DNA from: a virus
Taxonomy: Duplodnaviria; Heunggongvirae; Uroviricota; Caudoviricetes
Reading direction: 5' to 3' (one strand)
IMG/VR virus record: IMGVR_UViG_3300037067_005176
Span: 125,081 to 189,080 of that record
Length of the DNA stretch: 64,000 nt
Shown: positions 4,851-33,996 of the stretch, piece by piece
How positions within the stretch are numbered: position 1 is the stretch's first letter
How the letters are laid out: each line of letters begins with the position of its first letter
Translations under genes and position numbers: made by a program
The notes under the pieces: model-generated
The model's input: only the letters and a program-made list of their open reading frames with translations
Database searches by the model: none
Told to the model about the DNA's origin: nothing

Positions 4851-4858
4851 ATATTCGT

Positions 4859-8720: not shown

Positions 8721-8732
8721 GAGAATTTATTA

Positions 8733-10253: not shown

Positions 10254-10395
10254 AAAATAATCCAAATTCTAAATGTGTAAATTATTTCGGTATTGTTTAT
10301 AAATCAAAATCAAAATGCATGAAGGCAAATAATATTACACGACATAAATTTGATAATTTGATTAAAAATGGTGTTATACACTATATTGAGGGTTT

Positions 10396-10884: not shown

Positions 10885-10887
10885 CGC

Positions 10888-10941
10888 ATGAATTACCAAA
10901 GAATACATGCGAAAAACGAAGTCAACTTGGTCGTAATATAA
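10888..10941 (+). pseudogene. Footprint of an HNH homing endonuclease 5' end (MNYQRIHAKNEV...*)
   Basis: atgaattaccaaagaatacatg matches the 5' ends of the HNH genes at 14152 and 30377 (atgaactaYcaaagaatatatgatgc). Confidence 0.4.
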
Positions 10942-10968
10942 ATAATTCAAAATAATTAGAGAGGTTTT

Positions 10969-11256
10969 ATGAAAGGCGATTTTATTAAATATTTAAGAGA
11001 AGGTTCAATGTCCTTTGGATACACTACTGTTGACTGCGGTAGAGATGGCGATAATCATAGGCATCAATTTAAAGTTGATAAACAAGGAAACGGTATAACG
11101 TCCGAAAACGGTGACTCTGTTCACACGCACATGATAGTGATGGGTCAAGTACATTACGCAAATGGTCACCAACATTCGATGGGTCCTGCAATGGAAGACC
11201 AATCTGAATTCAGAACTGGCGATGAATTTGGTAATGATCTTGGCGTACATCACTAA
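10969..11256 (+). CDS. His/Gly/Asp-rich hypothetical protein (possible metal-binding)
   Basis: 95-aa ORF with RBS agagagg. Multiple H clusters (HRHQF, HTHMIVMGQVHYANGHQH). Confidence 0.45.
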   Translation: MKGDFIKYLREGSMSFGYTTVDCGRDGDNHRHQFKVDKQGNGITSENGDSVHTHMIVMGQVHYANGHQHSMGPAMEDQSEFRTGDEFGNDLGVHH

Positions 11257-18988: not shown

Positions 18989-19547
18989 GAAATTCAAAAC
19001 ATTGTATGAATCGCTAAATAATATTGAAGCTTTACAAAAGGTGATTTACTCAGGGACGTCACCTGTCTATGTTGCTACTGCAGGTATACAAGGAAGCGGA
19101 AAATCAACATTTGCTAAAGAGAACTTCAAAACTATTGAAATACTTGATCTTGATGAAATCAATAAAGATATTTCAAATGGTGATATGGAAGCGTTTCAAA
19201 GAAATAGATCAAAAGCAATTTCAAAGAAGAATGAGATGCTTAGAGATTTGTTTAAGAAAAGAAAATCATTTATTGATGCAGGTACTGCAGCCAATACTCA
19301 ATCTCTGTTGAAGAAACTTACTTATGCAAAATCTTTAGGATACACAACTGCTGTAGTGTATGTGAATATTCCAATAGAAGTTGCAATTGAAAGAAACTTA
19401 AAACGAATTGAAAGCGGTTCTCATGGAGTTCCCATTGAACGTGTTCAAGAAATTATAAACCGTACAGATATGAATGTTAGACAAACTATTAAAGAAATAA
19501 AAGACAATGCTGATCTTGTTGATTTCTTTATTGAAAAAGGACTATAA
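18989..19547 (+). CDS. P-loop kinase (Walker A GIQGSGKST; AAA_33/polynucleotide-kinase-like)
   Basis: Walker A GxxGSGKST near the N-terminus. Starts MKFKTLYES. Real start likely ATG 18989, downstream of the ORF-track start. Confidence 0.5.
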
Positions 19548-19548
19548 A

Positions 19549-20454
19549 ATGACAATTCAATCAACCGCTCGTAAAGGTATTCCTCACCTTTGGTTCCCAG
19601 GCAATTCAATGGAAATGAAGCCTTTGGATTTTTTGGACTTTATCAAATTACTTAGGCGCAATGCTGGCGTTATAAGTTACAAGAATACAAGTCTTTCTGA
19701 AAAGATTGATGGCGCCGGAATTCGATTCGGATGTGATGTTGATAAAAGATTCTTTATCGAGTCTTCTCGCTCAGGTCCTATCTTTGTACCTAAAGCATTT
19801 TCTAAATTTGCTGAAAACAAATTCGGCTCAACCAACGCAACAGCAAATGGGTATGATGCGATATTCGACGAGTTGGATGCGGATAATGTTTTATACTTTA
19901 TACTCAATAAGTATAACAAAAATGGTATAAAGGTTATAGGCGAAGTTCTTTTAAACCAATTTGGAGTTAAACATGATACTGAACAGAATCTTGTTAAATT
20001 TGTCAATACTTGGTATGATAGTACCAAGTTGGGGTCGTTTGCAACTTTTGTGTTATTTACCGTTCAAGATTCTGAAGGCAATACGCATAGAAGTTCAGAT
20101 GAAATTATAAGCCTACTAAAAGCAATATCAAATGACCGTATAAAATTTGAGACTGCTGAGATCAATGAATTTGAACCTTTAGATTTCTCAAAGCATATTG
20201 AGGGATTTGCAAAGGTTATGAAAACTGCATTTGATAATGACATAGATAACTTTATCTTGAAAAAGAAGAAGGATGCTGATGTTATTCTTTACATAAACAC
20301 TCTCCAAAAAATTCTCAATGCCCATTTATCTGCTTTAATCAATAAAGGAAAGTTTGGGCCAAACTATGAAGGACTTGTATTTGAATTTGATAATAAAATC
20401 AAGTTTAAGATTACAACGGAAACATTTAAAGATGCTAAAAGAAAATCCAAATAA
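19549..20454 (+). CDS. Ligase-like nucleotidyltransferase (motif I KIDGAG, motif IV EGLVFEF, motif V KIKFKI); candidate RNA ligase
   Basis: KxDG lysine-adenylation motif plus EGxV and KxK motifs in the correct order. Lies immediately downstream of the P-loop kinase. Confidence 0.4.
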   Translation: MTIQSTARKGIPHLWFPGNSMEMKPLDFLDFIKLLRRNAGVISYKNTSLSEKIDGAGIRFGCDVDKRFFIESSRSGPIFVPKAFSKFAENKFGSTNATANGYDAIFDELDADNVLYFILNKYNKNGIKVIGEVLLNQFGVKHDTEQNLVKFVNTWYDSTKLGSFATFVLFTVQDSEGNTHRSSDEIISLLKAISNDRIKFETAEINEFEPLDFSKHIEGFAKVMKTAFDNDIDNFILKKKKDADVILYINTLQKILNAHLSALINKGKFGPNYEGLVFEFDNKIKFKITTETFKDAKRKSK

Positions 20455-21481
20455 AATATATTTTAACCTATCAATCACTCCAGATGCAACGACTATAGGT
20501 TGTATTGATAAACATAATCCGCATTGCGAAATTATATTTGATGAAATTTCACGATTGTTAATGAGAACCGAAATTAACAAAGGTTTTCAACACTTCTGGA
20601 AAAAGAAGAAAAATGATAAGCTTTTAAATGAACGAAAACTAATGCATTCGCAATTTATTCAATCCTATACTCTTAAAAACTATTTAAGCGAAATTGATAA
20701 AATTGGACGCGTCTTTGCTAAGCATACATTCGATTGTAAAGATGGAGTGTATCCTTTAAGTGAACTAACAAAAGAAGTTTCAAAATACTTCAATCCCATA
20801 TTCTTTGATAGAATTCTCAATACAAAAATAAAGATCACTCAACCTGTAGAAGGTCCTGGTGAAAACTATTTGTGGTCTTTATTTTCAAATCTTGACTTTG
20901 CTCAAAGCAAGGGAGATTTGGTTGATACGATAAACAACTACAAGATAGAAGTAAAAGGCGATTCAGGTTCATTAGGTTCAAATACTACTGGGCGCGAATG
21001 GAATGAAAAATCTTCTAAAGATTTGTGTTCATTGATTGATACTTCAATAAGTGAAAAAGAAAGAACTTACTTGATGAAGTCTTGTACATTCGGAACTGAA
21101 GTTGCCCGTTGTTTAGAAACCGCTTTAAAATCAAATCCTTCTGATCAGGTGCTTGAAAAGATATGCTATATCATTTCAAATTACAATGACATACCTAAAG
21201 AAGATATTAAAAGCTTTATTCAATTGGTACGCCTTAAACCAGATTATCAAAACATTCTAAAACTTGTTATTGCATTGCATATGAAGCTTTATTCTGAAGA
21301 TGAGAACTTTGATAAATTATTTCTCTTCAACGGAGGATCTGAAAGAAGTATAAATAAATTAATAGTAATGACTGCGAAACAAGACATTTATACTTTGCTT
21401 ACGGATATTGATAAGTATAACATTACTTCAAAGAATTGGGGCGCAGGCAAGAAAGGAATTAGAATAGCAGCAAACATCTGA
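20366..21481 (+). CDS. Hypothetical protein (start uncertain: 20354 TTG, 20366 ATG or about 20429 ATG)
   Basis: Long ORF overlapping the 3' end of the upstream gene. Confidence 0.45.
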   Translation: MKDLYLNLIIKSSLRLQRKHLKMLKENPNKIYFNLSITPDATTIGCIDKHNPHCEIIFDEISRLLMRTEINKGFQHFWKKKKNDKLLNERKLMHSQFIQSYTLKNYLSEIDKIGRVFAKHTFDCKDGVYPLSELTKEVSKYFNPIFFDRILNTKIKITQPVEGPGENYLWSLFSNLDFAQSKGDLVDTINNYKIEVKGDSGSLGSNTTGREWNEKSSKDLCSLIDTSISEKERTYLMKSCTFGTEVARCLETALKSNPSDQVLEKICYIISNYNDIPKEDIKSFIQLVRLKPDYQNILKLVIALHMKLYSEDENFDKLFLFNGGSERSINKLIVMTAKQDIYTLLTDIDKYNITSKNWGAGKKGIRIAANI

Positions 21482-21488
21482 GGTATTG

Positions 21489-22064
21489 ATGAAGTTTAAA
21501 TCTTTATATGAATCAAGCGGAATGCTTTTTGAATATACTCATAGAGAGTTAGTAAAAATGTCAGATGCTGGTCGTAAGCAACGTTCAAAAGGAATGCCTG
21601 CTTATTATAAAGGTTTAACTCAAACCGATGACAAGAAACATCTCAAAACAATTTGGAATGTTAATAGTGCATCAAAACCTGATGTTGTATATGAACAAGT
21701 TGTAGAAGTTATTCCGAAAAAGTCGAATGTATTTAAAATATCAAAAGATAAATGGGATCTTAAACGCTTTGTAGATGTAATGAAAAACTCGGATGTGAAA
21801 GTTTATTGCTCCTGCCCAGATTTCTTGTGGGGTGGCCAAAAGTACAACATTGGACCTCATGGAGATTATGATGATTCTTTAGCACCTGGAAATATTGGTG
21901 ATTTCTTTGATGGAGATAAAGAAGTTGTTGATATTGCTCCAAATGTCAGAGACCCAGAACGTGAACATGTTTTGTGCAAACACTTAATTGCTGTAACAAA
22001 AGTATTCGACGCGAATACAATTGATATTATGAAAGATGCAAAGCGTTTTAAAGTCATTAAGTGA
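21489..22064 (+). CDS. SWIM zinc-finger domain protein (CSCPDF...CKH)
   Basis: CxC-x(n)-CxH arrangement. Starts MKFKSLYES. Confidence 0.4.
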   Translation: MKFKSLYESSGMLFEYTHRELVKMSDAGRKQRSKGMPAYYKGLTQTDDKKHLKTIWNVNSASKPDVVYEQVVEVIPKKSNVFKISKDKWDLKRFVDVMKNSDVKVYCSCPDFLWGGQKYNIGPHGDYDDSLAPGNIGDFFDGDKEVVDIAPNVRDPEREHVLCKHLIAVTKVFDANTIDIMKDAKRFKVIK

Positions 22065-22105
22065 TCATCAATATAAATAATTAAAATTTTAATACGAGGT
22101 TCAAA

Positions 22106-22576
22106 ATGGATAAATATTTAAGCAAAGCTTCTTACTTTATGACTGATTCAGATCAGCTTATTACAGAAGCGAAGAAAGAAGATGCTGCAGCTGCTGTTGT
22201 TATTGCAACAGAAGGCAAGAAAGAAGATGCTGATAAAAAAGTTGTTGCCGCTCTTTCTAAGGACAATTTAACAAAGTTTCCAAACAAGGCTGGGATGTTT
22301 AAAAAGAAGAAAGCGATCAAGGAAGAAGAAGACGAAGAAGATGTCGATGCTGATACTCTTGAAGAGAAGGTTGAAGAGAAGGACGCAGTTCGCGAAGATG
22401 AAGATGACGGTTCCGAAGATGGTGAGAAAGACGAATTGACTGAAGGTGAAGAAGATGATGAAACTGGTGAAGAAGAAGGCGATGAAATTGCTGACGACGA
22501 CCAAGTTGAAGATCCTAAGAAAAAGAAGAATGTTGTTGAAAGCTATTTAGCTCATGCTTCTCGTTGGGTTGACTAA
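22106..22576 (+). CDS. Highly acidic Glu/Asp-rich protein (candidate DNA mimic or scaffold)
   Basis: C-terminal half is more than 50% D/E. Confidence 0.5.
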   Translation: MDKYLSKASYFMTDSDQLITEAKKEDAAAAVVIATEGKKEDADKKVVAALSKDNLTKFPNKAGMFKKKKAIKEEEDEEDVDADTLEEKVEEKDAVREDEDDGSEDGEKDELTEGEEDDETGEEEGDEIADDDQVEDPKKKKNVVESYLAHASRWVD

Positions 22577-22604
22577 TGACTCTAAGTTTTAAATAAACAC
22601 ATAG

Positions 22605-22631
22605 AGCCTGAGACTAGTCTCAGGCTTTTTA
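22605..22631 (+). terminator. Rho-independent terminator (agcctgagac TAG tctcaggct + TTTTT)
   Basis: Perfect palindromic 10-bp stem plus T5. Confidence 0.7.
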
Positions 22632-22693
22632 TCGGATCTCGTGAGAGAAAACCGCTAGGCTAAAGACCTAGCGAATGAATCGAACAAAAATAA

Positions 22694-23614
22694 TTTAACT
22701 TTTTTCGAGGAAATGCTGAATTCCCTAGCTTCAAATCAAGAAAATCAAAGAATTCCTTCCGTGTTCCTCAACACATAACAATTGAAGAAGGTAAAATCCG
22801 AGTTCCAAAATTCAATGACGGTATCAAATTAATAAAACATAGAGAATTCAAAGGCGAGATTCGCCAATGCGCATTCTCAAGAGATTGTAGAAATCAATAT
22901 TTCGTATCTATCTTGGTAGCAACTACCCATGAACAACTACCACACACAGGTAAGCCAGTTGGTATTGATCTAGGTATTAAGGATTTCGCTATAACAAGCG
23001 ATGGTGTTAAGTACAAGAATCATCGTTATACTAAGCGATATGAAAGAGAACTGAAAGTAGCACAACAACATCTATCTCGTAAACAGAAAGGTAGTCGTCA
23101 ATCCGAAAAACAAAGATTGAAGGTTGCTCGTATTCATGAGAAGATATCTAATTCACGAAAAGATACGCTTCACAAAATATCTACCAAAATAGTTGCATCA
23201 TACGATGTGATTTGCTTGGAAGATTTGAATGTGAAAGGTATGGTAAAAAACCATAAGTTAGCTAAACATATTTCGGATTGTGGATGGGGTCTGTTTGTTT
23301 CCATGTTAGAATACAAAGCTAAGTGGAATAATAAACAGATCGTTAGAATCAATAGATTCTTTCCATCATCAAAGACATGCGCTGATTGCGGTTGGATCAA
23401 ATCTAATTTAACGCTGAATGATCGTGAATGGGTATGTGAATCATGTGGATGTGAGCATGATCGAGATGTAAATGCTGCTAAAAACATATTAACAGAAGGT
23501 GTAAGCCTTCTTTCGGTGGGAACCATCGAATACACTGATGGAGACGATGTTAGCCGTAGCAATACGCTGTTGTTTATGAAGTCAGAAGCCCATGAGTCTT
23601 TAGCTCAAGGGTAG
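22694..23614 (+). pseudogene. tnpB: 5'-truncated TnpB (IS200/IS605-family OrfB, RuvC-like; reads ..FRGNAEFPSFKSRK..GIDLGIKDF..CxxC..CxxC..DRDVNAAKNI)
   Basis: Frame open from 22694 (no start codon). RuvC-I GIDLG, zinc finger CADCG..CESCG and RuvC-III DVNAAKNI are present. About 100 N-terminal residues are missing. Confidence 0.6.
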
Positions 23615-23925
23615 TTCACAACATCGATGGAATTGAACAAGCTTTAAGACTTCATCGTGGATACAAATATTTTAAACGCAAATCAATTCACCGACTTGTT
23701 GCAAAGGCATATTGTGAAGAGTGGTTTGATGGTTGTGAGATTCACCACTTGGATCATAACAAGCTTAACAATGACATTTCTAACTTAGTATGTATTTCCA
23801 AATCAGAACATAAAAAATTCCATGCCAACGACATCCAAACGACGATAAAAGAAGTTGGTAAGTCAAGACGCAAGAAGAAAACTCAGAAGCATTGTTTCAA
23901 CAAGAAGTTCGTTATAAACAAATAA
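23596..23925 (+). pseudogene. HNH endonuclease C-terminal fragment (..HRLVAKAY..GCEIHHLDHNKLNNDISNL..SEHKKFHA)
   Basis: Open frame without start codon, beginning where the TnpB frame ends. HNH_3-type motif. Confidence 0.5.
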
Positions 23926-23930
23926 CAAAA

Positions 23931-23963
23931 AAGAGGAATCGTTTTGATTCCTCTTTTCGTTTT
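23931..23963 (+). terminator. Rho-independent terminator (gaggaatcGTTTTgattcctc + TTTTCGTTTT)
   Basis: 8-bp stem plus T-rich tail. Confidence 0.65.
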
Positions 23964-24083
23964 GACGATTGTAAGTTTTCTTTTTGTCTTTACGAATCCT
24001 AGTCATTAAGGTTCGTCCGTTGTTTGACTCACTTATACGATCTTGTCGTAAATAGTGATCAAGATTTTTCTTTTGGTCCTGGA

Positions 24084-24480
24084 TCATATATTTTTCCTTT
24101 TATAGATTCTTCCTAATACCCACCCTAAATTAACATAACTATCAACATCATTTTTATTTATAAATTTTGATGCCTTGTTATTTGTTATCCAAACTTTATT
24201 ACATTGAACTTTTGAAATATTATTTCGCCATTCGCTTGTCAATTTACGTCCTGTCATCGATGCTTTTGACACTTGTGATATAATCTTTTTAGTTTCTTCT
24301 GTATGGTTAAGATGTATTGCTCCATGCCCACCAATACACATGTTATATGTATCGTTTTGATTTATAAAAGCTTTTGTGATTATTGAGTGTTCTCTATTAA
24401 AAGCTTTGCATTTTCAATCAAACCATTCCAAAATCTCTTTCTTGAAATTTTCTTTACGATACTTCTTTATTGATTGTTTA
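24084..24480 (-). pseudogene. GIY-YIG endonuclease pseudogene (copy of 6540..7358 with in-frame stop: ..KENFKKEILEWFD*KCKAFNREHS..)
   Basis: Minus-strand translation aligns with 6540..7358 (KENFKKEILEWFDWRCEALNREAE) but has a stop and lacks the N-terminal domain. NUMOD3-like C-terminus at 24084..24341. Confidence 0.5.
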
Positions 24481-24492
24481 ACTTTATTTTAT

Positions 24493-24519
24493 AGAGGTTA
24501 TTAGTAGTAACCTCTTTTA
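24493..24519. terminator. Stem-loop terminator (agaggttaTTAGTAGtaacctct with T/A-rich flanks), usable in either direction
   Basis: Perfect 8-bp stem. + strand tail tttatatctattt. Confidence 0.4.
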
Positions 24520-24603
24520 TATCTATTTATAATTGCAGTAAGATTATTCCAAGAATAAAAATAATCAAATGACTACTAATCATCCGTCCTGCATCAATAT
24601 TTA

Positions 24604-24885
24604 TTATTTAGTTAATTCGTCAATTTCTTTAGAAATCATTTCGCATTTAGTGTTATAATCATATATAATCATAGCGATTTCACACCAAGAATAGAAGTCA
24701 GTAATATAAATGGATGCATCTTCTTGTGAATTAAGAAGATGCACATACTCTTCCATCATAAACTTGAAGTTCTCAATCCCAATGCGAGAAAGAGCCATTT
24801 TTTCCGAATCAGTCAAACTGATCGCGTGAGCCTCGTACTCTTCTAATGGGCGTGACTTCTTAAGTCTTTTTTCATCATGAAACAT
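24604..24885 (-). CDS. Hypothetical protein (93 aa), second gene of a leftward two-gene unit
   Basis: RBS ggagagaatgaATG. Overlap-coupled to the upstream 58-aa ORF. Confidence 0.45.
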   Translation of the reverse strand: MFHDEKRLKKSRPLEEYEAHAISLTDSEKMALSRIGIENFKFMMEEYVHLLNSQEDASIYITDFYSWCEIAMIIYDYNTKCEMISKEIDELTK

Positions 24886-24896
24886 TCATTCTCTCC

Positions 24897-25073
24897 TTAG
24901 GGACAAGTCCAAGTGTTGTATGCTTTTTCGCTAATCACCTTGTCTGTGCGAAGCGCATCTGTAAAACTGTTCCGAGCTTCACTTCTCATAACAGCATCAC
25001 CTTTCGGTAAATTTTTATGAGATTCCCTAAAGAGAGAAACAACTTCTTTCTTTGTCAATTGTTTTCTGGACAT
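24897..25073 (-). CDS. Small hypothetical protein (58 aa, MSRKQLTKKEVVSLFRESHKNLPKGDAV...)
   Basis: ORF below the track cutoff, read by hand. Divergent from the 25373 gene. Confidence 0.35.
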   Translation of the reverse strand: MSRKQLTKKEVVSLFRESHKNLPKGDAVMRSEARNSFTDALRTDKVISEKAYNTWTCP

Positions 25074-25303
25074 AAAAACTCCGGTTAAAATTGAACTTCA
25101 AATATAATAATAATCTAGAGATCTGTCAATCGAACTTTTTCTCCCGGAATTCGTGAAATTCCTTAAGTTATGAGATTTTAGTGAGAAAAATATGAAAAAC
25201 TATTGACGGCAGAGATTTTTAGTTGTATATTTGATTCATAAGGTTGGTAAACAACTGATTCGTTAAGAAAAAGGTTTATAAGAAAAAAGTTCAAATAAAC
25301 CAT

Positions 25304-25332
25304 TGACAAACGAAAAACAGATTGTTATATTA
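25304..25332 (+). promoter_or_regulatory. Consensus sigma70-like promoter TTGACA-N17-TATATT
   Basis: TTGACA 25304-25309, 17-nt spacer, TATATT 25327-25332, followed by RBS aaaaggag and ATG 25373. Confidence 0.6.
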
Positions 25333-25372
25333 ACCACATAACTGATAACAAACCACTCGAAAAGGAGTCAAC

Positions 25373-25900
25373 ATGACCACTGCAACAAAGTCCACCGCCG
25401 CCAAGTCTTCTTCCAAGTCCAAGAAGGCTGCTGAACCAAAAACCGAAGCTGTTGTGCTGCCTGTTGCTGCACCTGCAGTTGAAGTTGAAGGCTCTGCACC
25501 AATTGCAGAGCCCATTGCCGAAAAGACCAAGAAGGTTTTGACACCTTCCGACAAGATCGCCCTGAAGGTTGTTTCCGCAATCCGTTCCGATCGCTCGCAG
25601 TTCAACAAGGCCTTCGAACTTTCCGAAGACGGCAATACCGCGACCCATACTTTCTCCGCAAAGCTTGGATCCGCAATTGTTACCTTCGGCCGTCATGAAG
25701 TTGCAGGCAAGAAGACCCGCGAGACAATCGCCCGTGCATTCATCCATGTCAAGCCCGAAGGTTCCGAGAAGCATCTCGAAATCACCGGACCAATGGCTGC
25801 CCGTGCATGGTACGCAATGAACCATGCTCCTAAGGGTCACATCAAGTCCGAACCTGATGCAGAAGCTGTTGCCGCAGCTGAAGCCGCTCTCGGCCTGTAA
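25373..25900 (+). CDS. GC-rich (about 50% vs about 35% locally) protein with Lys/Ala/Ser-rich N-terminal tail and a conserved about 115-aa core ending ..EAALGL; paralog of 26023..26373
   Basis: Strong C-ending codon bias. The many overlapping ORFs on both strands here are GC artefacts. The core aligns with 26023..26373 (SDKIALKVV../..EALIALGLE). Confidence 0.6.
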   Translation: MTTATKSTAAKSSSKSKKAAEPKTEAVVLPVAAPAVEVEGSAPIAEPIAEKTKKVLTPSDKIALKVVSAIRSDRSQFNKAFELSEDGNTATHTFSAKLGSAIVTFGRHEVAGKKTRETIARAFIHVKPEGSEKHLEITGPMAARAWYAMNHAPKGHIKSEPDAEAVAAAEAALGL

Positions 25901-26022
25901 TCAAATCGTTACACAGACTGAATGGGTTTAGGGTGTGGGTTTTATCGCCCACGTAATTCCTGGGAGGACTCGATTGCCTCCCTCAGTCCTATCAAATCAA
26001 AACCTCTAAAGGAGAATAGTGT

Positions 26023-26373
26023 ATGTCCGTAAAGTTCACCCTTTCCGATAAGATTGCAGTCGCTGTAATTGAAAGCTTGCGTGCAGGCGTTCAACTTCGG
26101 CCAACGATCGGAAAGACAGCTCATGGAAATATGAATGGGTTTATGTTTACAAATGAAAAGAATGCAACAATTCATATTCAAGCCTTCACAAAGGAAGGCG
26201 GAAAAAATGCAAAGTTTGTTATCGCAATAACTCCAGCTGAAGGTCGCACCACGGAAATTTTTGGTAAACATGCTTCGCTCGCATGGAAGATAATCAATAA
26301 TCCAACGACTTCAAGACGTGAAGTTGATATTGAAACTTTAAACGAAGCACTTATAGCTCTTGGTTTAGAATAA
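26023..26373 (+). CDS. Paralog of the 25373 protein core (116 aa, ends ..EALIALGLE)
   Basis: Shared motifs SDKIA[LV].V[VI]..R and C-terminal A..ALGL. RBS aaaggag. Confidence 0.55.
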   Translation: MSVKFTLSDKIAVAVIESLRAGVQLRPTIGKTAHGNMNGFMFTNEKNATIHIQAFTKEGGKNAKFVIAITPAEGRTTEIFGKHASLAWKIINNPTTSRREVDIETLNEALIALGLE

Positions 26374-26410
26374 TATTATATTCAATCCTAGCAAGAAAAA
26401 AATAAAAATT

Positions 26411-26449
26411 AAAAGTTCTAGATAACTTCAAAAATCCAGAACTTTTTTA
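26411..26449 (+). terminator. Rho-independent terminator (aaaagttctag...ccagaactttt + T6)
   Basis: 7/8-bp stem plus T6. Confidence 0.45.
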
Positions 26450-26490
26450 TATTTAAATTTCCATTAAAACAATAAACAAGGAAGGTTAAA

Positions 26491-26676
26491 ATGGTCACTT
26501 TCACAGTACTCGCATATTCAGTTGATTCTACAGGTCGTATTTATGGTGAGGCAAAGCCGAAGCATGTTTGGACGAAGGAGTTAATGGAATCCTACCGAGG
26601 GATGCGTTATGTGTCAATGATTTTTGAAAATGAGAACGGAAAGTCTAAACTTATTTGGGAAAATCGTCGGGGTTAA
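26491..26676 (+). CDS. Small hypothetical protein (61 aa)
   Basis: RBS aaggaagg. Confidence 0.4.
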   Translation: MVTFTVLAYSVDSTGRIYGEAKPKHVWTKELMESYRGMRYVSMIFENENGKSKLIWENRRG

Positions 26677-26961
26677 TTATGACAAAGAAAACGGTGATTG
26701 TTAATAAGATACCGTTTTCCTAGTCAAGTGTTCATCTCGTGGTTATAATGTACAAAATTTGAACACAAAGATTTGGATGAAAGTTTGTGTTAGAAACGAA
26801 AAGAACTTGAATTACATTTAAGAGGTATATGATGCAATGATTATGAAGGACGTCCTTAGCGCAAAGTAACTTGTCCGCCCAGAGAGCGATGAATCCGTTG
26901 AAACTTTTGGTGAAGCGGAAGAACTTATTAAATGCCTCTTTAACAAACTGGGAATTTGTAA

Positions 26962-27489
26962 ATGATTAAAATTATATCCGATGGTGAAACTGGTGTTGGA
27001 CAAGCTGCCCTAGCTGCGGCTTTTCTATGTGATACTGAATATATTGGCTATGTCAGGGCCGGTTATATAACATGTAACGGCCCATGCGAAAAATTAAAGC
27101 ATTTAAATTGTCAAACTTTAGAAACTGATCGTCTTCGTGACTGTGCTCAAAAGTGCATTGATGAATGTAATGGTGTTCTTATTTTCCGTTCGGGTGAATG
27201 CTCAAAGATTGAAGACAATGTTAAGTCTTTAATAGGTGAGTCTCGCCCTGTTATGGAATTTGATTTTCTAAAGCCAATTGATCCAAGATCAATTACAGTT
27301 TGGCTCCTCACTGAAGGAATCACAAAGCTGTATGTGACTGGACGCAACGATACAATGGGTTTAGATATCTTTTATAATAAAGCGTTACCTTTGATGACTC
27401 ATATTATAAAAGATATTAACAACGAGCTTGAAAGAAAAGAGCTTGACAACAAAAGAAAAGCAAAAGCAAAAGCTGAAGTGAAAAAGTAA
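26962..27489 (+). CDS. SLOG-superfamily protein (YpsA / putative MoCo-carrier-like; ISDGETGVGQAALAAA)
   Basis: N-terminal GxTGVxxAAL motif characteristic of the YpsA/MoCo_carrier SLOG family. Confidence 0.45.
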   Translation: MIKIISDGETGVGQAALAAAFLCDTEYIGYVRAGYITCNGPCEKLKHLNCQTLETDRLRDCAQKCIDECNGVLIFRSGECSKIEDNVKSLIGESRPVMEFDFLKPIDPRSITVWLLTEGITKLYVTGRNDTMGLDIFYNKALPLMTHIIKDINNELERKELDNKRKAKAKAEVKK

Positions 27490-27527
27490 TTCGGCTTGTT
27501 TATAAGTTACGACGCAGGAGTGATAAT

Positions 27528-28328
27528 ATGTTAAAAGGTTTTGTGATTTCGGATATTCACATTGATCATATTGGTAATGGAAGTCCAAGCAGAGACAAGA
27601 TGCTTCGGTATCTTGAACCAAAGTTATGTCCCGCTGATGTAGTTTTTATTGGCGGAGATATTTCAAATAGCGGCTCTGCGTTCTCAAAGCTCGTCGATAC
27701 ACTTAGTGAGTTATATCCTAAGGTTGTATATTGTCTTGGTAATCATGATTACGCAGTGCATCCAAACAAGAATGAAACTTCTTTTCAAAAAGTTGAGCGT
27801 TCTGTTAATGGTGTAAAATCTATCAACTCCGTATTTCTTAATGGTGGGCATCATGATCTTTCAGACTTCACAAGAGTCGGAGGAACTATGGGTGCTTATG
27901 ATATGTCATATTCTGAAAAGCATTTTGGTTTATCATATGATCACATGTTAAGAGAATGGAATAATTGGTATGATGGTCGTTATTGGGATTTGAACGGGAT
28001 GACATACACAGAATTTATGAACCGTGAATTTGATAAGATTGATGATTTGATAAATGATAAGCAGTGCAATATAATGCTTACACATATCGGTCCATTTGCT
28101 TGGGGAATACCACCAAAGTTTCATAACGCACAGACTGGATTCTTTTACTTTGATGGGAAAAGATATCTTGATGCGATGCCAAACGATTCTGTTTGGATTT
28201 TTGGCCATACTCACGATCAAAAAATTCTTGACCTTGGCAACGTTCGTCTTCTTTGCAATCCTCTTGGGTACATTGGAGAAAGCAGAACAACGATTCCAAA
28301 AGAAGAGTTTTTATTTGATATAAAATAA
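27528..28328 (+). CDS. Metallophosphoesterase (calcineurin-like; GDISNSG..GNHDY..GHTHD)
   Basis: Ordered MPP motifs. RBS gcaggag. Confidence 0.55.
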   Translation: MLKGFVISDIHIDHIGNGSPSRDKMLRYLEPKLCPADVVFIGGDISNSGSAFSKLVDTLSELYPKVVYCLGNHDYAVHPNKNETSFQKVERSVNGVKSINSVFLNGGHHDLSDFTRVGGTMGAYDMSYSEKHFGLSYDHMLREWNNWYDGRYWDLNGMTYTEFMNREFDKIDDLINDKQCNIMLTHIGPFAWGIPPKFHNAQTGFFYFDGKRYLDAMPNDSVWIFGHTHDQKILDLGNVRLLCNPLGYIGESRTTIPKEEFLFDIK

Positions 28329-28343
28329 ACAAAGAAGGTATAA

Positions 28344-28802
28344 ATGATAGTATATGTTGATATGGATAATGTGATGTGTGATTTTAATCGCGCAAAGAAA
28401 TTAGCAATTAAAAACACTCCTGATAATGCGTATCCTCATAGTCAAGTAGATTTTTTTAGACAACTTGAAGAAATTGATGGAGCTATTGATGCTTTGATTG
28501 ACTTATGCGAGGCTGGAATTGACGTTTATATTCTTACTGCACCTTCGACATTGAATCCAATGAGTTATATGGAAAAGATGCTTTGGGTCCGTGATCATCT
28601 TGGACAATGGTGGGTTGAGCGGTTAATTATTAGTAAGCATAAACATCTTAATGTTGGCGATTACCTTGTTGATGATATGGCAGGAGGGTGTGGACAAGAA
28701 CAATTTATAGGCACTCTCCTTCAATTCGGAAGTAAGCAATATCCAAATTGGATCACTGTAAAAGAATTTCTTATTCACAAAAAACAAAGTGAGGATGTAT
28801 GA
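28344..28802 (+). CDS. 5'(3')-deoxyribonucleotidase (NT5C-family HAD; VYVDMDNVMCDF)
   Basis: DMDxV motif I and overall size typical of NT5C. Confidence 0.5.
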   Translation: MIVYVDMDNVMCDFNRAKKLAIKNTPDNAYPHSQVDFFRQLEEIDGAIDALIDLCEAGIDVYILTAPSTLNPMSYMEKMLWVRDHLGQWWVERLIISKHKHLNVGDYLVDDMAGGCGQEQFIGTLLQFGSKQYPNWITVKEFLIHKKQSEDV

Positions 28803-29173
28803 GTTTATATAATATGCTATTTGGGGTGAATGCTTTATCCCCTGTGCTTTTGAAAATCATCAATCTTGAAATGGGAATTATACCAAGATTCAGAGATTGC
28901 TATATTGACGGCGAATACATTATTGTTCATACACGGTCGGGTGGTGGAAACAGAGAATGGCTTGAAGAAGAAAATAATATGCTTGAAGCAAATGAAAATT
29001 ATTCGCATGATGAAGACGATGATTTTGATTGTACTTATGCGAATTTTTATTTCAACATTCCAAGTGAATATGCTGAAGATATTAATGCCCTTGTAAATAA
29101 AGATGAAACTTATAAACCTTCAGAGAAGTGGGCAAAACTATTTGAAGGATTGGAAAAGAAAGATGAAAATTGA
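28799..29173 (+). CDS. Acidic hypothetical protein (124 aa)
   Basis: ATGA-overlap start. RBS gtgagg. Confidence 0.45.
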   Translation: MSLYNMLFGVNALSPVLLKIINLEMGIIPRFRDCYIDGEYIIVHTRSGGGNREWLEEENNMLEANENYSHDEDDDFDCTYANFYFNIPSEYAEDINALVNKDETYKPSEKWAKLFEGLEKKDEN

Positions 29174-29242
29174 ATATAAAATTGTTAATGCAAATGATGA
29201 AACTAAAGTACTTTTTGAAGATGGCTTCGGAAAGGAGATTGA

Positions 29243-29395
29243 ATGAAATGCGGAAAATGTAATATTGGTAAACTTAAATATAATGAGAAAGGTATTTATT
29301 TTTGGTATACTTGTAATAATTGTGATTATGAAACACGCAAAGAAGTAAATACAATAAATAAAAGACTTATAAAAGAGAAAACTTATGGGACGTAA
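29243..29395 (+). CDS. Small zinc-ribbon protein (50 aa; CGKC...CNNCDYE)
   Basis: RBS aaaggag 5 nt upstream. Below the ORF-track cutoff. Same architecture as the - strand zinc-ribbon family. Confidence 0.4.
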   Translation: MKCGKCNIGKLKYNEKGIYFWYTCNNCDYETRKEVNTINKRLIKEKTYGT

Positions 29396-30380
29396 ACTTG
29401 CATCAATTCAGCGCATTTGGAAAATTGAACCAATTGAAGGAGCTGACAGAATTGAATTAGTTCGTGTAATGGGCTGGCAGTGTATAGCAAAGAAAGAAGA
29501 GTTCGAAAAGTATGATCTATGTGTATACATCGAAATTGACTCTGTATGCCCAAAAGAAGATGAACGATTTGCTATGCTTGCTTCAACCAATTGGAAGGTT
29601 AAAACAAGAAAGATGAAAAATACTCTCTCGCAAGGTATTGCATTACCACTTTCTTTATTCGGCTGGACTGATGCTGATGTTACACTTGAAGAGGATGTTT
29701 CTGAAAAGCTAGGTATTAAACTTTTTGAAAATTATGAAACATTTAATGCAGTCGAAGCAAAAGGTGGATTTCCAGGATTCATTCGTAAGACTGACCAAGA
29801 AAGATCAGCCAATTTAAGTCAAAAAACTTATGAAAATTATAGCAAAATGAAATTTGAAGTTACTGAAAAATGCGAAGGATCTAGTTCCACTTGGTTTTTA
29901 CGCGATAATGAATTCTTTGCATGTTCTCGCAATCTTGTGATGAGACTTATTGACGGTTCTCGTTGGAAATATTTAAACTACAAATACAATCTTGAAAATA
30001 AGTTAAAAACTTATGGAAAGAATATTGCTATTCAAGCGGAAATATTAGGGCCAGGAATACAGAAAAATTATTATGGTTTAAGTTCTTATGAGATTAAAAT
30101 ATTTGATGTGTTTGATATTGATGCACAAAGATATTTAAATCCTGATGAAAGATATAAAGTTCTTGAAGAGCTAGGTCTTATGCATATTCATGTTCCAATT
30201 GTGCATAAAGAATTTTCGTTTGAAGGAATAACTCATGATGAGTTGATGAAATTAGCCAACGGAAAATCTATGATTTCTTCAAACAAGATTCGTGAAGGTT
30301 TGGTTTATAAGTGCATATCAAATGGAGATTATCACTTTAAAACCGTTGATCCAATTTACTTGCTCAAAGAAGATCAATGA
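29385..30380 (+). CDS. RNA-ligase-family nucleotidyltransferase-like protein (variant motif I EKCEGSS, motif IV EGLVYK, motif V FKTVD) with N-terminal extra domain
   Basis: EGxVxK motif IV and K-x-[DE]-G motif I in appropriate order and spacing. Confidence 0.4.
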   Translation: MGRKLASIQRIWKIEPIEGADRIELVRVMGWQCIAKKEEFEKYDLCVYIEIDSVCPKEDERFAMLASTNWKVKTRKMKNTLSQGIALPLSLFGWTDADVTLEEDVSEKLGIKLFENYETFNAVEAKGGFPGFIRKTDQERSANLSQKTYENYSKMKFEVTEKCEGSSSTWFLRDNEFFACSRNLVMRLIDGSRWKYLNYKYNLENKLKTYGKNIAIQAEILGPGIQKNYYGLSSYEIKIFDVFDIDAQRYLNPDERYKVLEELGLMHIHVPIVHKEFSFEGITHDELMKLANGKSMISSNKIREGLVYKCISNGDYHFKTVDPIYLLKEDQ

Positions 30381-30637
30381 ACTACCAAAGAATATATGAT
30401 GCAATAAAAAGAACTTCTATTGCTAATAAAGGCCGTAAAAATACAATTGAATCGAATAAGCGAATAAGCGACTCTATAATTGGAAAGCACAAAGGCTTAA
30501 AAAATCCAAACTTTGGAAAGTATAATACGGATTCACCAAACTATGGAAGAAGATGGTTTCATAATAAAATCGGTGAACGCGTATACAAAAATCCGGATGA
30601 AGTTGATCATAACATTTGGATTTTTGGTATGAAATGA
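30377..30637 (+). pseudogene. Internally deleted HNH endonuclease relic (MNYQRIYDAI... lacks the HNH catalytic motif)
   Basis: N- and C-termini match 14152..14757 but the middle (ERHHIIPK...EHYLCH) is absent. Confidence 0.45.
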
Positions 30638-30700
30638 CATAAATTTTCACTATAGTTTATTTTTCGTGAAATACCGCGAGAAAAAAAATCATTTTTACCA

Positions 30701-30729
30701 TTGCAAAGTGGTAAAATAGTTTGTATATT
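30701..30729 (+). promoter_or_regulatory. sigma70-like promoter TTGCAA-N17-TATATT within a repeated promoter-leader cassette
   Basis: Near-identical to the cassette at 48069-48192. Confidence 0.5.
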
Positions 30730-30770
30730 GTATCTATCGAAAGGCAACAAACTCCAAAGAGGATACTAAA

Positions 30771-31151
30771 ATGATTAGGTTTTTCTATAATGGTTTTAAA
30801 ATTGATGATGACAAAAAGTTGTATAAAGTATACTTTACACCATGCACCAATGGAACGATTCGTGTTACATCTGAAGATTATATAGCCTTCCCAAAAGCAA
30901 CCCGCGATCAATTTGTAGTCGTTAATAATACTAACATTATGATTGATTATTTTGAGAATGAATATTTTGAAATTTCAACGACCCATGAGTTGTTCAAATT
31001 TGCAAAAATTGCTTTGTTACAAAATTCCCTTAAATATTTTACTAGCCAATATAAGAAATGCCTAAAATATTCTTGGGAAAAGAAAGGTGAGTTTGTCCAA
31101 GCCAAAATAAATGAGTATCAAGAACAAATAAAAGCTTTGGAGAACGCATGA
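30771..31151 (+). CDS. Hypothetical protein (126 aa)
   Basis: RBS aaagagga downstream of the repeated promoter cassette. Confidence 0.5.
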   Translation: MIRFFYNGFKIDDDKKLYKVYFTPCTNGTIRVTSEDYIAFPKATRDQFVVVNNTNIMIDYFENEYFEISTTHELFKFAKIALLQNSLKYFTSQYKKCLKYSWEKKGEFVQAKINEYQEQIKALENA

Positions 31152-31348
31152 AGATAAATGACTTTATGAAAGAACTTGAAATTGAAATCCAAAATGCTAA
31201 AATTGATGAAAATTTATTGTATGTTTTGGTTCGTATCAGTGATCAAAAACATATTTCTCCTGCAATGCCAATGAAAGATTCTGTGATTCAATGGATTAAG
31301 AAAAACACCGAAGAAATTTATTTCAAGCTATTTTATGAGGAGGATTAA
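31148..31348 (+). CDS. Hypothetical protein (66 aa)
   Basis: ATGA overlap with upstream gene. Confidence 0.4.
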   Translation: MKINDFMKELEIEIQNAKIDENLLYVLVRISDQKHISPAMPMKDSVIQWIKKNTEEIYFKLFYEED

Positions 31349-31548
31349 TGAAGCCCATTGGTTTGACTAAGAAAGGCTGCGCGTGGGATTTTATTGATAT
31401 TCGCGCATTTAAAAATTCTAATGATAGACATTCAACGTCGGGAGATCGTTCCGCACGTAAAACATTACGACGAATCGTTCGTTCGTTAAAGAGATCGGAA
31501 AAGCAAAAATTTATAACACAACGTCTTAACGAGGAGATGAATGAATGA
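31348..31548 (+). CDS. Small basic protein (66 aa, Arg/Lys-rich)
   Basis: TAATG overlap. RBS gaggagg. Confidence 0.4.
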   Translation: MKPIGLTKKGCAWDFIDIRAFKNSNDRHSTSGDRSARKTLRRIVRSLKRSEKQKFITQRLNEEMNE

Positions 31549-31661
31549 ACTAAATATTTTAAAACTAAAAATCTGTAAATTCAAGTATTAGCAATGTATG
31601 CTATAATCAAGTTCAAAATTTCAAATCGTAAAACATAATCACTTAAATAGGAGACATAAAT

Positions 31662-32852
31662 ATGTCAATTTATAAATTATTCTCAATTGTAGGAATTACA
31701 ATTTTAATTTTTGCAGTGCTTTTCACTCTTCCAAGAATTATTGAAAACATTGATACAACAGAATATAAAATCAAGCAAGCAGCAATATCTGGTGATATGT
31801 CTTGTCATAATGAATCTGGGTGGTTTTGGCAAAGTTTAGGTAATGTTGTAACATACGACAAAACCGGTACTTTTTATTTTTCTGAAGAAAATATTGATGG
31901 TGGCGAAGGCGAAGACGCTGATCCATTGCATGCTACATTCCAAGGTAATTCCACAGGAAAGATTAGTGGTTATCTTAAATATAGATTGCCTTCAAAATGT
32001 GATAATCAGTTATCACTGAATTCTGAATATAAGAATAAAGAGTCTGTTCGTATGGATTTAATTCGAAATGCAATTTCAACTGCTATTGGTCAAGCAGGGC
32101 CATTGTTCACTGCTGAAGAAGCAAATATTGATCGTCGTCCAGAGTTTACAAAAATTATTCGAGATATTCTTGAAGAAGGCGAATTTTTAACAGTTACATC
32201 CGAAGTTAATAGGATTGAAGATAATGATTCAACTAACATTCAAAGGTTTAAAGTAACAAAGATGTGGTTGGATTCGACAGGCAAACGAATGATCACAAAA
32301 CCATCAGTTTTAAAACGTTATGGAATTGAAGTGATTGCTTTGGATATTAAGAAAATTAATTTTGATATCAAGACAAGAGAATTGATGGATGCAAAGAAGA
32401 ATGCTGAACAACAACGAATTGCTTCTAAAGCTTTAGCGGAAAAATCTAAGCAAGACGCTATTACCGAACGTGAACAAGGTAATGCTCGTGTTGCAAAAGC
32501 AAAAGCTGATGAAGAAGTTATTAAAATTGCTGAAGTGACACAAGCTGAAAAACAATTTGAAGTTGCACGATTAGCTGCGGCAACTGCTTTAGAAGATGCA
32601 AAGAAAGTTAAAGCTCAAGGTGAAGCTGAAGCGTATGCTGCACGTGCTAAGGTATCCGCAGGTTTAACACCACAAGAACGTGCAGAATGGGATTTCAAAA
32701 TCGCTGATGCTGTATCACGAAATCTTGCTCAATCTACAGTTAAATGGGTGCCTGAAATTATAATTAGCGGTGAAGGTAAAGGTGGATCAAATCCGTTGGA
32801 TGCTGTAGGCATGAATATGTTGTTAGATGTTGCAAGTAAAATGAAAAAGTAA
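31662..32852 (+). CDS. SPFH/band-7 (stomatin/flotillin-like) membrane protein
   Basis: N-terminal TM helix, then Ala/Glu/Lys-rich coiled-coil region typical of the SPFH family. Confidence 0.5.
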   Translation: MSIYKLFSIVGITILIFAVLFTLPRIIENIDTTEYKIKQAAISGDMSCHNESGWFWQSLGNVVTYDKTGTFYFSEENIDGGEGEDADPLHATFQGNSTGKISGYLKYRLPSKCDNQLSLNSEYKNKESVRMDLIRNAISTAIGQAGPLFTAEEANIDRRPEFTKIIRDILEEGEFLTVTSEVNRIEDNDSTNIQRFKVTKMWLDSTGKRMITKPSVLKRYGIEVIALDIKKINFDIKTRELMDAKKNAEQQRIASKALAEKSKQDAITEREQGNARVAKAKADEEVIKIAEVTQAEKQFEVARLAAATALEDAKKVKAQGEAEAYAARAKVSAGLTPQERAEWDFKIADAVSRNLAQSTVKWVPEIIISGEGKGGSNPLDAVGMNMLLDVASKMKK

Positions 32853-32874
32853 TATTTAAAACAAAGGAATGATT

Positions 32875-33996
32875 ATGAATAAGAAATACAAATTAACTAA
32901 AGAGACTATAGTCATTAGTTCATCAACTTTATATAGAATAAAGGCTCTAATTGACATTCCTTCTTCTAATGTTAAAAAAGGTGATCCGGGTGGATTCATT
33001 GAAAATGAATCCAATCTAAGTCATGAAGGTTCTTGCTGGGTCGCTGATAATGCAAGAGTCTTTGGTGATGCATGGGTCTTTGGTGATGCATGGGTCTTTG
33101 GTTCTGCAAGAGTTTATGGTAATGCAGGTGTCTTTGGTAATGCATTGGTCTTTGGTAATGCATTGGTCTTTGGTAATGCAAAGGTCTTTGGTTCTGCAAA
33201 GGTCTCTGATAATGCAAGAGTCTATGATAATGCATGGGTCTATGGTAATGCAAGAGTTTATGGTTCTGCATGGGTCTCTGGTAATGCAAAGGTCTTTGGT
33301 AATACATGGGTCTATGATAATGCAAGAGTTTATGGTAATACAAATGTCTATGATAATGCAAAGGCCTATGGTGATGCATCGGTCTATGGTGATGCAAAGG
33401 TCTATGGTGATGCATTGGTCTATGATAATGTAAAGGTCGCTGATAATGCAAGAGTCTTTGGTGATGCATGGGTCTTTGGTGATGCATGGGTCTTTGGTTC
33501 TGCAAAGGTCTCTGATTCTGCAAGAGTTTATGGTTCTGCAAGAGTCTCTGGTGATGCAAGAGTCTATGGTTCTGCAAAGGTCGCTGGCAATGCAAATGTC
33601 TTTAGTAATGCAAAGGTCGCTGATAATGCATGGGTCTATGGTAATGCAAGAGTCTCTGATAATGCAAGAGTCTTTGGTAATGCAAAGGTCTATGATAATG
33701 CATTGGTCTATGATAATGCAATAGTCTCTGGTTCTGCAAAGGTATATGGTGATGCAAAGGTCTATGATACTGCAAGAATCTATGATAATGCATTGGTCTT
33801 TGGTAATACATGGGTCTATGGTAATGCATTGGTCTCTGATAATGCACCTGCGGTAGCGAAGTATTATATTGATGGTGAACAGGTTTTATTTGAAGTATTT
33901 AAAGAGCGGACTAAAGAACCTGAAAATGAAGTTGTTATGACCATAAAAGAAATTGAACAAAAACTTGGAATACCTAATTTAAAAATTACACGGTAA
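32875..33996 (+). CDS. Hexapeptide-repeat (left-handed beta-helix-like) protein, family copy 1: conserved 55-aa N-module plus about 45 tandem x-V-[FYS]-[GD]-[NDS]-A repeats
   Basis: Protein periodicity of 6 aa, DNA periodicity of 18 bp. N-terminus MNKKYKLTKET..TLYRIKAL..KKGD.GGFIENESNLSHEG.CWV shared with 43431 and 47016. Confidence 0.65.
   Translation: MNKKYKLTKETIVISSSTLYRIKALIDIPSSNVKKGDPGGFIENESNLSHEGSCWVADNARVFGDAWVFGDAWVFGSARVYGNAGVFGNALVFGNALVFGNAKVFGSAKVSDNARVYDNAWVYGNARVYGSAWVSGNAKVFGNTWVYDNARVYGNTNVYDNAKAYGDASVYGDAKVYGDALVYDNVKVADNARVFGDAWVFGDAWVFGSAKVSDSARVYGSARVSGDARVYGSAKVAGNANVFSNAKVADNAWVYGNARVSDNARVFGNAKVYDNALVYDNAIVSGSAKVYGDAKVYDTARIYDNALVFGNTWVYGNALVSDNAPAVAKYYIDGEQVLFEVFKERTKEPENEVVMTIKEIEQKLGIPNLKITR
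33041..33850 (+). repeat. 18-bp tandem coding repeat array (hexapeptide repeats)
   Basis: Units of the form ggtaatgcaaaggtcttt repeated about 45 times with variation. Confidence 0.7.

Follow-up and report, generated by a model that had tools for sequence, protein, structure and literature searches.

A TnpB-only insertion sequence, very probably disabled recently, inside the resident HNH gene of an uncultured phage

The IMG/VR record IMGVR_UViG_3300037067_005176 belongs to an uncultured, AT-rich phage of the Caudoviricetes; the 64,000 nucleotides (nt) of it analyzed here, positions 125,081 to 189,080, are referred to below as the window. Between window positions 22577 and 24600, pieces of a tnpB gene, an HNH endonuclease gene and a GIY-YIG endonuclease gene lie close together, which raises the question of whether they are stray fragments or whether an element with recognizable ends is preserved among them. 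A first reading made from the letters alone (the sequence-only reading) had described a field of decayed mobile elements, and three coding remnants are indeed present at or near the positions assigned to them. Their annotation nevertheless has to be corrected, from stray fragments to a single insertion sequence (IS) with both ends. We consider it very probable that positions 22633-23619 are one recently disabled, non-autonomous IS200/IS605 element of the TnpB-only, IS1341-like kind, which lies inside the resident 121-amino-acid (aa) HNH gene of the phage. The GIY-YIG remnant lies 470 bp downstream and belongs to a separate insertion; it is what is left of a free-standing homing-endonuclease gene that has itself decayed. 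The locus is valuable mainly as a clean worked example, in which a sister phage supplies the empty site and the entry and the disabling of the IS can be read to the base. As we read it, the example shows a TnpB IS that enters a phage gene at its transposon-adjacent motif (TAM) and then undergoes short-repeat deletions, with the guide-RNA module left intact.

The tnpB remnant and the ends of the insertion sequence

The translation of 22694-23613 (+) matched the Pfam profiles OrfB_IS605 (E=1.5e-26) and Cas12f1-like_TNB (E=4.4e-25) and aligned to residues 104-403 of the solved ISDra2 TnpB (8bf8/8exa) with E=3e-58. The expected motifs could be located, with GIDLG at 22961-22975, LEDLN at 23216-23230, CxxC at 23378-23392 and 23435-23449, and DRDVNAA at 23459-23479, and the remnant retains both the RuvC D-E-D triad and the zinc-finger/TNB domain. 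Its N-terminal part is incomplete. The first in-frame ATG, GTG or TTG codon is a TTG at 22913, the WED and REC domains are not complete, and the N-terminal HTH_OrfB_IS605 domain (PF12323) carried by intact relatives is missing. A protein search recovered intact 397-aa TnpB relatives (including P0001-P0010, at 86-91%), 86-92% identical, on other phage-like contigs, where their neighbors are, for example, holin and amidase genes or RecA and helicase genes. Comparison with these intact loci revealed both IS ends and an internal deletion in the window copy.

When the window was aligned by blastn with the intact copy on contig L002, two collinear segments were obtained: 22626-22706 matched 2232-2311 at 90% identity and 22697-23619 matched 2626-3548 at 88%, with a 10-nt overlap. 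Because the first segment is the left end (LE), which lies upstream of the start codon of the relatives, the LE has been kept and approximately 324 bp have been lost from within. The IS therefore measures 987 bp (22633-23619), compared with 1310 bp in L002, and the deletion took the 5' untranslated region, the ATG and about 91 to 95 codons. The missing start codon and the loss of roughly 100 N-terminal residues, both claimed in the sequence-only reading, are thus confirmed; its description of the gene as 5' truncated is not, since the LE (22633-22706) is still present and the loss is internal. A tblastn search with residues 1-86 of the intact relative P0002 gave no match in any frame of the window. 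The N-terminus is therefore absent at the DNA level in all frames, which indicates a deletion, and a simple frameshift was rejected. Recognition of the TAM and of the guide-target duplex by ISDra2 TnpB depends on the first WED strand and the REC domain. Because the start codon, the first WED strand and most of REC are gone from the window copy, no TnpB is expected to be made from it.

Shortened copies also occur elsewhere. Another phage-like contig, L132, carries at 3997-4986 an independent 5'-truncated copy of the same IS (87% identical to L002), which lacks the left end and the first ~70 codons and retains an intact right end (RE). The TnpB relatives P0029, P0030 and P0054 are N-terminally short as well, and loss of the 5' part of tnpB with the guide-RNA end kept seems to be recurrent.

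The IS boundaries were read from independent insertion sites. On the left, similarity starts directly after TTTAT in the window, L002, L003 and L065 and after ATTAT in L066. On the right, the tip ...GGTAGTTCAC/T is kept in 29 of the 35 scanned relatives (23 distinct sequences), and the flank beyond it is different in each. Since similarity starts after TTTAT or ATTAT and stops at GGTAGTTCAC across these sites, the IS was delimited as 22633-23619. Subterminal hairpins, a search for which had been proposed as a check, were found at both ends (22653-22673 and 23588-23612) without terminal inverted repeats, as is typical of IS200/IS605 elements. A repeat scan of 22500-24700 returned only the hairpins, and no further RE copies were found in the window. 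The IS sits 3' of the TAM, carries a conserved transposon-encoded motif (TEM) at its RE and is not flanked by a target-site duplication; the empty site in L063, a contig of the sister phage, reads TTTAT/AACATT. A tblastn search of the 64-kb window with an IS608 TnpA query, which is a weak test, gave no match, and no TnpA was called beside any relative. Most tnpB elements are not accompanied by tnpA (PMC10055086).

In the intact relatives, the LE and RE hairpins have the loop TCTTTAG in common. The LE loop of the window reads CTAAAGA, which is exactly the reverse complement of the sequence that all intact relatives have there, on an unaltered stem, and the window LE matches the minus strand of the L002 LE with 100% identity over 22 nt. 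The RE hairpin loop has the normal, top-strand orientation. The inverted LE loop looks like the product of a single hairpin-flip event. Such a loop would probably prevent recognition of the top strand by TnpA and probably leaves the element immobile. One A.A mismatch (23592/23608) is present in the RE terminal stem, at a pair that is C-G or A-U in the relatives.

The interrupted HNH gene, the guide-RNA scaffold and the age of the damage

Window positions 23617-23925 matched the Pfam family HNH_3 (E=4.9e-12) and retain the HNH catalytic motif region in an incomplete open reading frame (ORF). The intact counterpart is P0121, a 121-aa HNH protein that is 89% identical over the length of the fragment. 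P0121 is encoded on L063 (a 45.5-kb contig) and L064 (a Logan contig), which are syntenic with the window gene for gene at ~89-90% DNA identity and represent the sister phage. The sister was reached only through the HNH protein; no relatives were recovered when the neighboring genes 21486-22061 and 20354-21478 were used as queries against viral and metagenome contigs, respectively. With slashes marking the limits of the exchanged segment, the sister reads ...CCCAGGCTTTTTAT/TTGAGGTTGTT-ATG-(codons 2-18)-GTT-TAT/AACATTGATGGAATTGAACA... and the window reads ...CAGGCTTTTTAT/IS/AACATCGATGGAATTGAACA.... Codons 19-20 of the sister HNH gene read (G)TT TAT and are followed by the sequence that flanks the IS in the window. 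The IS thus replaces the 71 bp between two TTTAT motifs of the sister, namely, 11 nt of spacer and ribosome-binding site (RBS) and HNH codons 1-20.

The TTTAT that now flanks the IS is provided by the T-run of the upstream terminator (22605-22626). An independent Logan assembly, L133, is 100% identical to window positions 19106-22657 and reproduces the terminator-TTTAT-LE junction up to 22657, and the 71-bp loss is therefore real. A second independent Logan assembly, L111, is 100% identical to 23707-32903 and reproduces the 3' part of the HNH gene. L133 and L111 derive from the same phage and sample and end 25 nt inside the IS (22657) and 88 nt outside it on the right (23707), respectively. 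That L111 stops off the repeat boundary may reflect population heterogeneity in the HNH region.

HNH-derived sequence begins at 23620, and 23596-23619 is the IS right end read in the HNH frame. The start-less HNH fragment that had been placed at 23596-23925, adjoining TnpB, is accordingly a pseudogene, as proposed, with an opening that belongs to the IS. Nor is it a small C-terminal piece that merely abuts TnpB: 101 of 121 residues remain, and the IS has inserted into the HNH gene at TTTAT. An extension of the tblastn HNH match into 23581-23619 contains a stop and was judged to be a chance resemblance (12 of 39 nt identical by hand count). The same small HNH gene occupies this position in the more distant relatives L104-L108, which marks it as resident in this phage group and not as a homing gene of sporadic occurrence.

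The guide-RNA (omega-RNA) scaffold emerged from an alignment of the 3'-terminal 110-200 nt of intact copies of the IS. It comprises helix A (23512-23519/23523-23530), helix B (23535-23539/23581-23585), an inner helix and the terminal hairpin. In a set of 11 intact relatives that leaves out the window, standard pairs occupy 91.7% of cells, and 14 of 23 pairs have changed on both sides. None of 500 shuffles reached the observed value for four of the five measures, and one reached it for the fifth; when the partners were slid as a control, pairing fell to 23-48%. A covariance model (R1) built from these 11 relatives only, which covers the terminal hairpin up to but not including its upper part, gave 23510-23619 a score of 109.9 bits (E=4.9e-24) with all modelled pairs standard, and it had no other credible match in the window or in L063. 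An Rfam search (E up to 1) over 22000-25500 returned only terminator-like noise and no guide-RNA, group I intron or IStron family.

The sequence that the RNA would carry as its guide, AACATCGATGGAATTGAACA, follows TTTAT in the intact HNH genes of L063 (1 mismatch, at position 6), L107 (2 mismatches) and L108 (3 mismatches) and is unique within the window. In the window itself, it is preceded by TTCAC rather than TTTAT, the usual form of self-protection. The suggestion that the right end specifies an omega-RNA with the adjacent HNH sequence as its guide is therefore structurally correct, with HNH codons 21-27 as the guide. Scaffold and right end are intact, and a stable processed RNA is a prediction; a consensus promoter scan of the region found 12 candidates, compared with 12.1 expected from shuffles.

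The tnpB remnant is still a 306-codon frame without a stop. Its ratio of nonsynonymous to synonymous divergence (dN/dS, Nei-Gojobori) against five intact copies is 0.085-0.134, and the ratio among the intact copies is 0.080-0.132. Because the ratios are the same and the frame is free of stops, the internal deletion is recent relative to the divergence of the copies (dS ~0.56-0.61 from the remnant to the closest copies). Private substitutions at otherwise invariant sites number 7 in the window and 2-25 in the intact copies. The HNH remnant is also free of stops, its ~90% identity to L063 matches that of the genome elsewhere, and its damage is likewise recent; tnpB and the HNH gene are both recent wrecks.

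Table 1. Features of the insertion sequence and its surroundings (window coordinates)
Feature	Position	Strand	Remarks
Terminator hairpin of upstream acidic-protein gene (22106-22576)	22605-22626	+	Perfect 11+11 palindrome; kept in L063/L064
TTTAT TAM	22628-22632	+	Directly 5' of the IS left end; TTTAT at 4 independent sites, ATTAT in L066
IS left end (LE)	22633-22706	+	~90% identical to LE of intact L002 2232-2311 and L003 9875-9936
LE subterminal hairpin	22653-22673	+	Stem CGCTAGG/CCTAGCG; 7-nt loop 22660-22666
tnpB remnant	22694-23614	+	306 codons + stop, ~residues 92-397 of the intact 397-aa protein; without start codon, first WED strand and most of REC
Internal-deletion junction	22697-22706	+	Imperfect direct repeat (12 nt), TTAACTTTTTTC in LE vs TTAATTTCTTTC in tnpB
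Guide-RNA (omega-RNA) scaffold	23510-23619	+	Overlaps tnpB 3' end; covariance model and covariation
Right-end (RE) subterminal hairpin	23588-23612	+	Loop TCTTTAG; doubles as terminal stem of the guide-RNA scaffold; from alignments with relatives and minimum-free-energy fold
TTCAC TEM	23615-23619	+	Last five RE bases; IS boundary 23619/23620
Sequence the guide RNA would carry	23620-23639	+	AACATCGATGGAATTGAACA = HNH codons 21-27
HNH_3 endonuclease pseudogene	23620-23925	+	Codons 21-121 + stop; RBS, ATG and codons 1-20 absent
Bidirectional terminator-like hairpin	23927-23962	.	Between HNH remnant and minus-strand genes; 12+12 perfect inverted repeat; kept in L063/L064
GIY-YIG/Seg-like homing-endonuclease pseudogene	24084-24485	-	In-frame TGA 24414-24416; N-terminal ~42-45 residues missing
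Hairpin + T-run	24493-24515	+	At expected place of GIY-YIG 5' end; terminator-like; homology ends just 3' on the minus strand

Known relatives, possible history and competing explanations

TnpB relatives were found by tblastn in 615 phage records, so the expectation that TnpB would be uncommon in such phages did not hold. All relatives at >=79% identity, that is, at least 79%, lie on viral or phage-like contigs, and on the latter the lineage is common. Among GTDB species-representative genomes, the best TnpB match reached 63% identity, and no host or donor genome was identified there. Together, these distributions suggest a phage-borne IS lineage. On L003, several TnpB genes lie close together (7758-9004 and 10001-11199), and the RE of a second, 413-aa TnpB on the other strand is 94% identical to the window RE over its last 35 nt. 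On L001 (2942-4795), an IS607-type serine recombinase and a TnpB lie beside the IS.

Among characterized elements, ISGst2 of Geobacillus stearothermophilus, which is also TnpB-only, has the same TAM and TEM as the window IS: TTTAT was measured as the TAM of ISGst2 TnpB2, and TTCAC is the wild-type TEM of ISGst elements (PMC10055086, Meers et al.). The two also share subterminal hairpins at both ends, a guide RNA that shares sequence with the tnpB 3' end and has a guide derived from the right flank, and the lack of tnpA within the element. However, the window TnpB is a distant relative (judged by a best match of ~49% to a Geobacillus phage copy), the window copy has the 324-bp internal deletion and the inverted LE loop, and its lineage at >=79% identity is found only on phage-like contigs. 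With the ISDra2 TnpB-guide RNA complex (8bf8, 8exa, 8h1j), the remnant shares the conserved RuvC D-E-D triad and zinc finger and a multihelix scaffold that ends a few nt before the guide. In contrast to ISDra2, the window remnant lacks an equivalent of residues 1 to ~100, and the window element has no tnpA. The TAM of ISDra2 is TTGAT, compared with TTTAT at the window IS.

A history of three steps would account for the locus. The IS would first have entered at the TTTAT of the HNH gene, either by means of a trans-acting Y1 TnpA or after TnpB-guided cleavage of a genome that lacked the IS, followed by recombinational copying during coinfection. The 71 bp between the two TTTATs would then have been lost. 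Candidate routes are recombination or deletion between the 5-nt TTTAT repeats, recombination between IS copies that stood in tandem, one at each TTTAT, and an aberrant choice of the upstream TTTAT as boundary by TnpA with subsequent reinsertion; flexible choice of alternative boundary motifs by TnpA is documented for ISGst2 (PMC10055086). Finally, slippage or a microhomology deletion inside the IS may have killed tnpB. Overall, the locus represents the decay of selfish elements of an ordinary kind and a known type of element, except in the case that the guide module is used in trans.

Several points weigh against this account. Only one assembly spans the IS interior and, with it, the deletion junction. 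Neither a progenitor, with an intact IS in an otherwise intact HNH gene, nor a sibling with the same insertion was found in the viral and metagenome collections searched; an exact scan of them for the RE-HNH junction GGTAGTTCACAAYATYGATGGAATTGAAC gave 0 matches, and the source contig is not in those collections. The search for a second TnpB covered 64 kb of a ~189-kb genome. The order given to the three steps is provisional, as the last two could have occurred either way round, and several routes could have produced the 71-bp loss. The remaining 306-codon frame, open and constrained-looking, fits a recent deletion and would also be compatible with retained function. That the locus is at present inert debris, yielding neither TnpB nor HNH protein, is most likely, to judge from the sequence.

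The alternative that survives best, although it is unlikely, is an orphan guide module comparable to the palindrome-associated transposable elements (PATEs), in which tnpB is dead and a guide RNA would still be produced, to be taken up in trans by a closely related TnpB supplied by another IS copy in the ~189-kb genome or by a coinfecting phage. Like PATEs and other protein-less IS200/IS605 derivatives, the window IS is non-autonomous, keeps LE, RE and scaffold, and would need proteins in trans (PMC10055086). It differs from them in being single-copy in the window and in retaining 77% of the tnpB frame, and because so much of the frame is present, it stands early in its decay and is no minimal palindromic element. 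The resulting complex would cut siblings that carry the intact HNH allele (TTTAT-AACATYGATGGAATTG), which would bias inheritance of the locus or exclude competitors.

Several observations are in keeping with such a module. The scaffold is full length with all modelled pairs standard, the guide matches the intact HNH allele beside TTTAT in L063, L107 and L108 with 1-3 mismatches, and the self site is protected by TTCAC in place of TTTAT. TnpBs that are 86-92% identical and have near-identical scaffolds occur in many phage contigs, often several per contig. In addition, PATE guide RNAs have been proposed to be used in trans (PMC10055086), and an IS605 insertion has been reported to spread independently of TnpA (PMC13565253). 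However, the 64-kb window contains no second TnpB. No promoter is evident; the deletion has taken the native sequence ahead of tnpB, and a terminator closely precedes the IS. The terminal stem carries the A.A mismatch, the only close sister allele is mismatched at TAM-proximal guide position 6, and a recent deletion alone equally predicts an intact scaffold.

A more specific form of the same idea, to which we give slightly less credence still, is a protein-less guide cassette whose RNA is loaded by the near-identical TnpBs of the phage community and which cuts siblings with TTTAT + AAYATTGATGGAATTGAACA. It would amount to a hitchhiking homing or competitor-exclusion element in a phage-restricted IS lineage that spreads without TnpA; "non-restorative homing" among coinfecting phages has been proposed (PMC13565253). 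If the guide module were used in trans, the locus would exemplify, in nature, RNA-guided homing or exclusion among coinfecting phages, an idea so far discussed mostly in theory (PMC13565253).

Much less probable is that the internal deletion, and perhaps also the 71-bp loss, is an assembly artifact produced by collapsed repeats of a multicopy IS. The IS family is multicopy in such samples, two Logan contigs from this phage break off around the IS, at 22657 and 23707, and the deletion junction lies inside a short repeat. Nevertheless, the left junction is reproduced at 100% in an independent assembly, the imperfect 12-nt junction repeat is far shorter than an assembly k-mer, and an independent truncated copy exists elsewhere (L132). 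The window IS also differs by 8-14% from every other copy along its whole length, which argues against a chimera.

Finally, we consider very improbable a functional domesticated RuvC/zinc-finger nuclease or regulator translated from TTG 22913 or a noncanonical start, since its open 306-codon frame with intact D-E-D motifs and zinc finger, its low dN/dS and the existence of other N-terminally short relatives (P0003, P0029, P0030 and P0054) are set against the lack of an ATG and an RBS (TTG 22913 has no Shine-Dalgarno sequence and lies 48 nt before the GIDLG motif), the different breakpoints of those relatives and the plain truncation without LE in L132, which show that the short form is not conserved, the loss of WED/REC parts that bind guide RNA and TAM in solved structures, and a low dN/dS that is explained by divergence gathered while the copy was intact.

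The GIY-YIG remnant and other features of the window

The GIY-YIG/Seg-like remnant on the minus strand contains an in-frame TGA in place of a tryptophan that is conserved in its relatives. It is 60% and 40% identical to intact relatives of 205-206 aa, with homology starting at their residue ~43-46, and the catalytic GIY and YIG motifs are therefore gone. It had no Pfam match and no GIY...YIG motif in an open frame. The sequence-only reading had taken it for a pseudogene with an in-frame stop, which is right, and for a copy of gene 6540, which is not: at 47% identity over 83 aa to the product of 6540-7358, it is a paralogue. The remnant was reproduced at 100% in the independent assembly L111.

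A block of ~510 bp containing the GIY-YIG remnant (~24099-24610) is absent from L063/L064. By blastn, 24089-24694 has no similarity to the sister, and its flanks are 78-90% identical. This stretch takes in the last ~90 nt (~30 C-terminal codons) of the 93-aa minus-strand gene 24604-24885, which have been replaced or have strongly diverged, and the tract beside the remnant resembles a co-conversion tract. The presence or absence of a gene between conserved genes of sister phages, with an adjoining diverged tract, is shared with free-standing homing genes of the T4 Seg/Mob type and has been described for Seg-type genes (PMC13565253). In contrast to these, the window gene is dead, with the catalytic motif region gone and a premature stop. 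The proposal of an insertion hotspot fits loosely, in that two independent insertions lie within 1.5 kb and the sister phage has neither.

The stop of the GIY-YIG remnant overlaps the ATG of a conserved small minus-strand ORF, 23863-24087, in an ATGA. This ORF has a strong RBS in L063 (GAGAGGAGAATATG), is called as a gene in L064, L104 and L111, and extends across the hairpin at 23927-23962 to run antisense to the 3' end of the HNH gene. Further genes or fragments resembling homing endonucleases lie at 6540-7358, 41730-42602, 61651-61869 (-) and 9822-9911; this set includes two intact GIY-YIG genes, one HNH-like stretch and one short GIY-like match, and the genome is rich in such elements.

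The phage had been labeled T4-like, for which we found no support. Megablast searches with 3.2 kb and 25 kb against INPHARED phages gave no match, as did a tblastn search of phages with the neighboring gene 20354-21478. The best RtcB matches (43-46%) are to Clostridioides, Bacillus and Staphylococcus phages, and most of the ORFs tested have no PHROG; the structural and replication core genes lie outside the window. ARAGORN found no tRNA gene in the 64 kb.

The genes 25373-25900 and 26023-26373 have a G+C content of 52-54%, compared with a window mean of 33%, and no Pfam match. As this pair is conserved in L063 at ~78% DNA identity, it is not a recent acquisition relative to the split from L063. 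The window also carries an RNA-repair/nucleotide gene cluster (45775-51760 and 29385-30380), with genes for a nicotinamide mononucleotide (NMN) adenylyltransferase/Nudix-like protein, a CCA-adding enzyme, RtcB and an RNA ligase.

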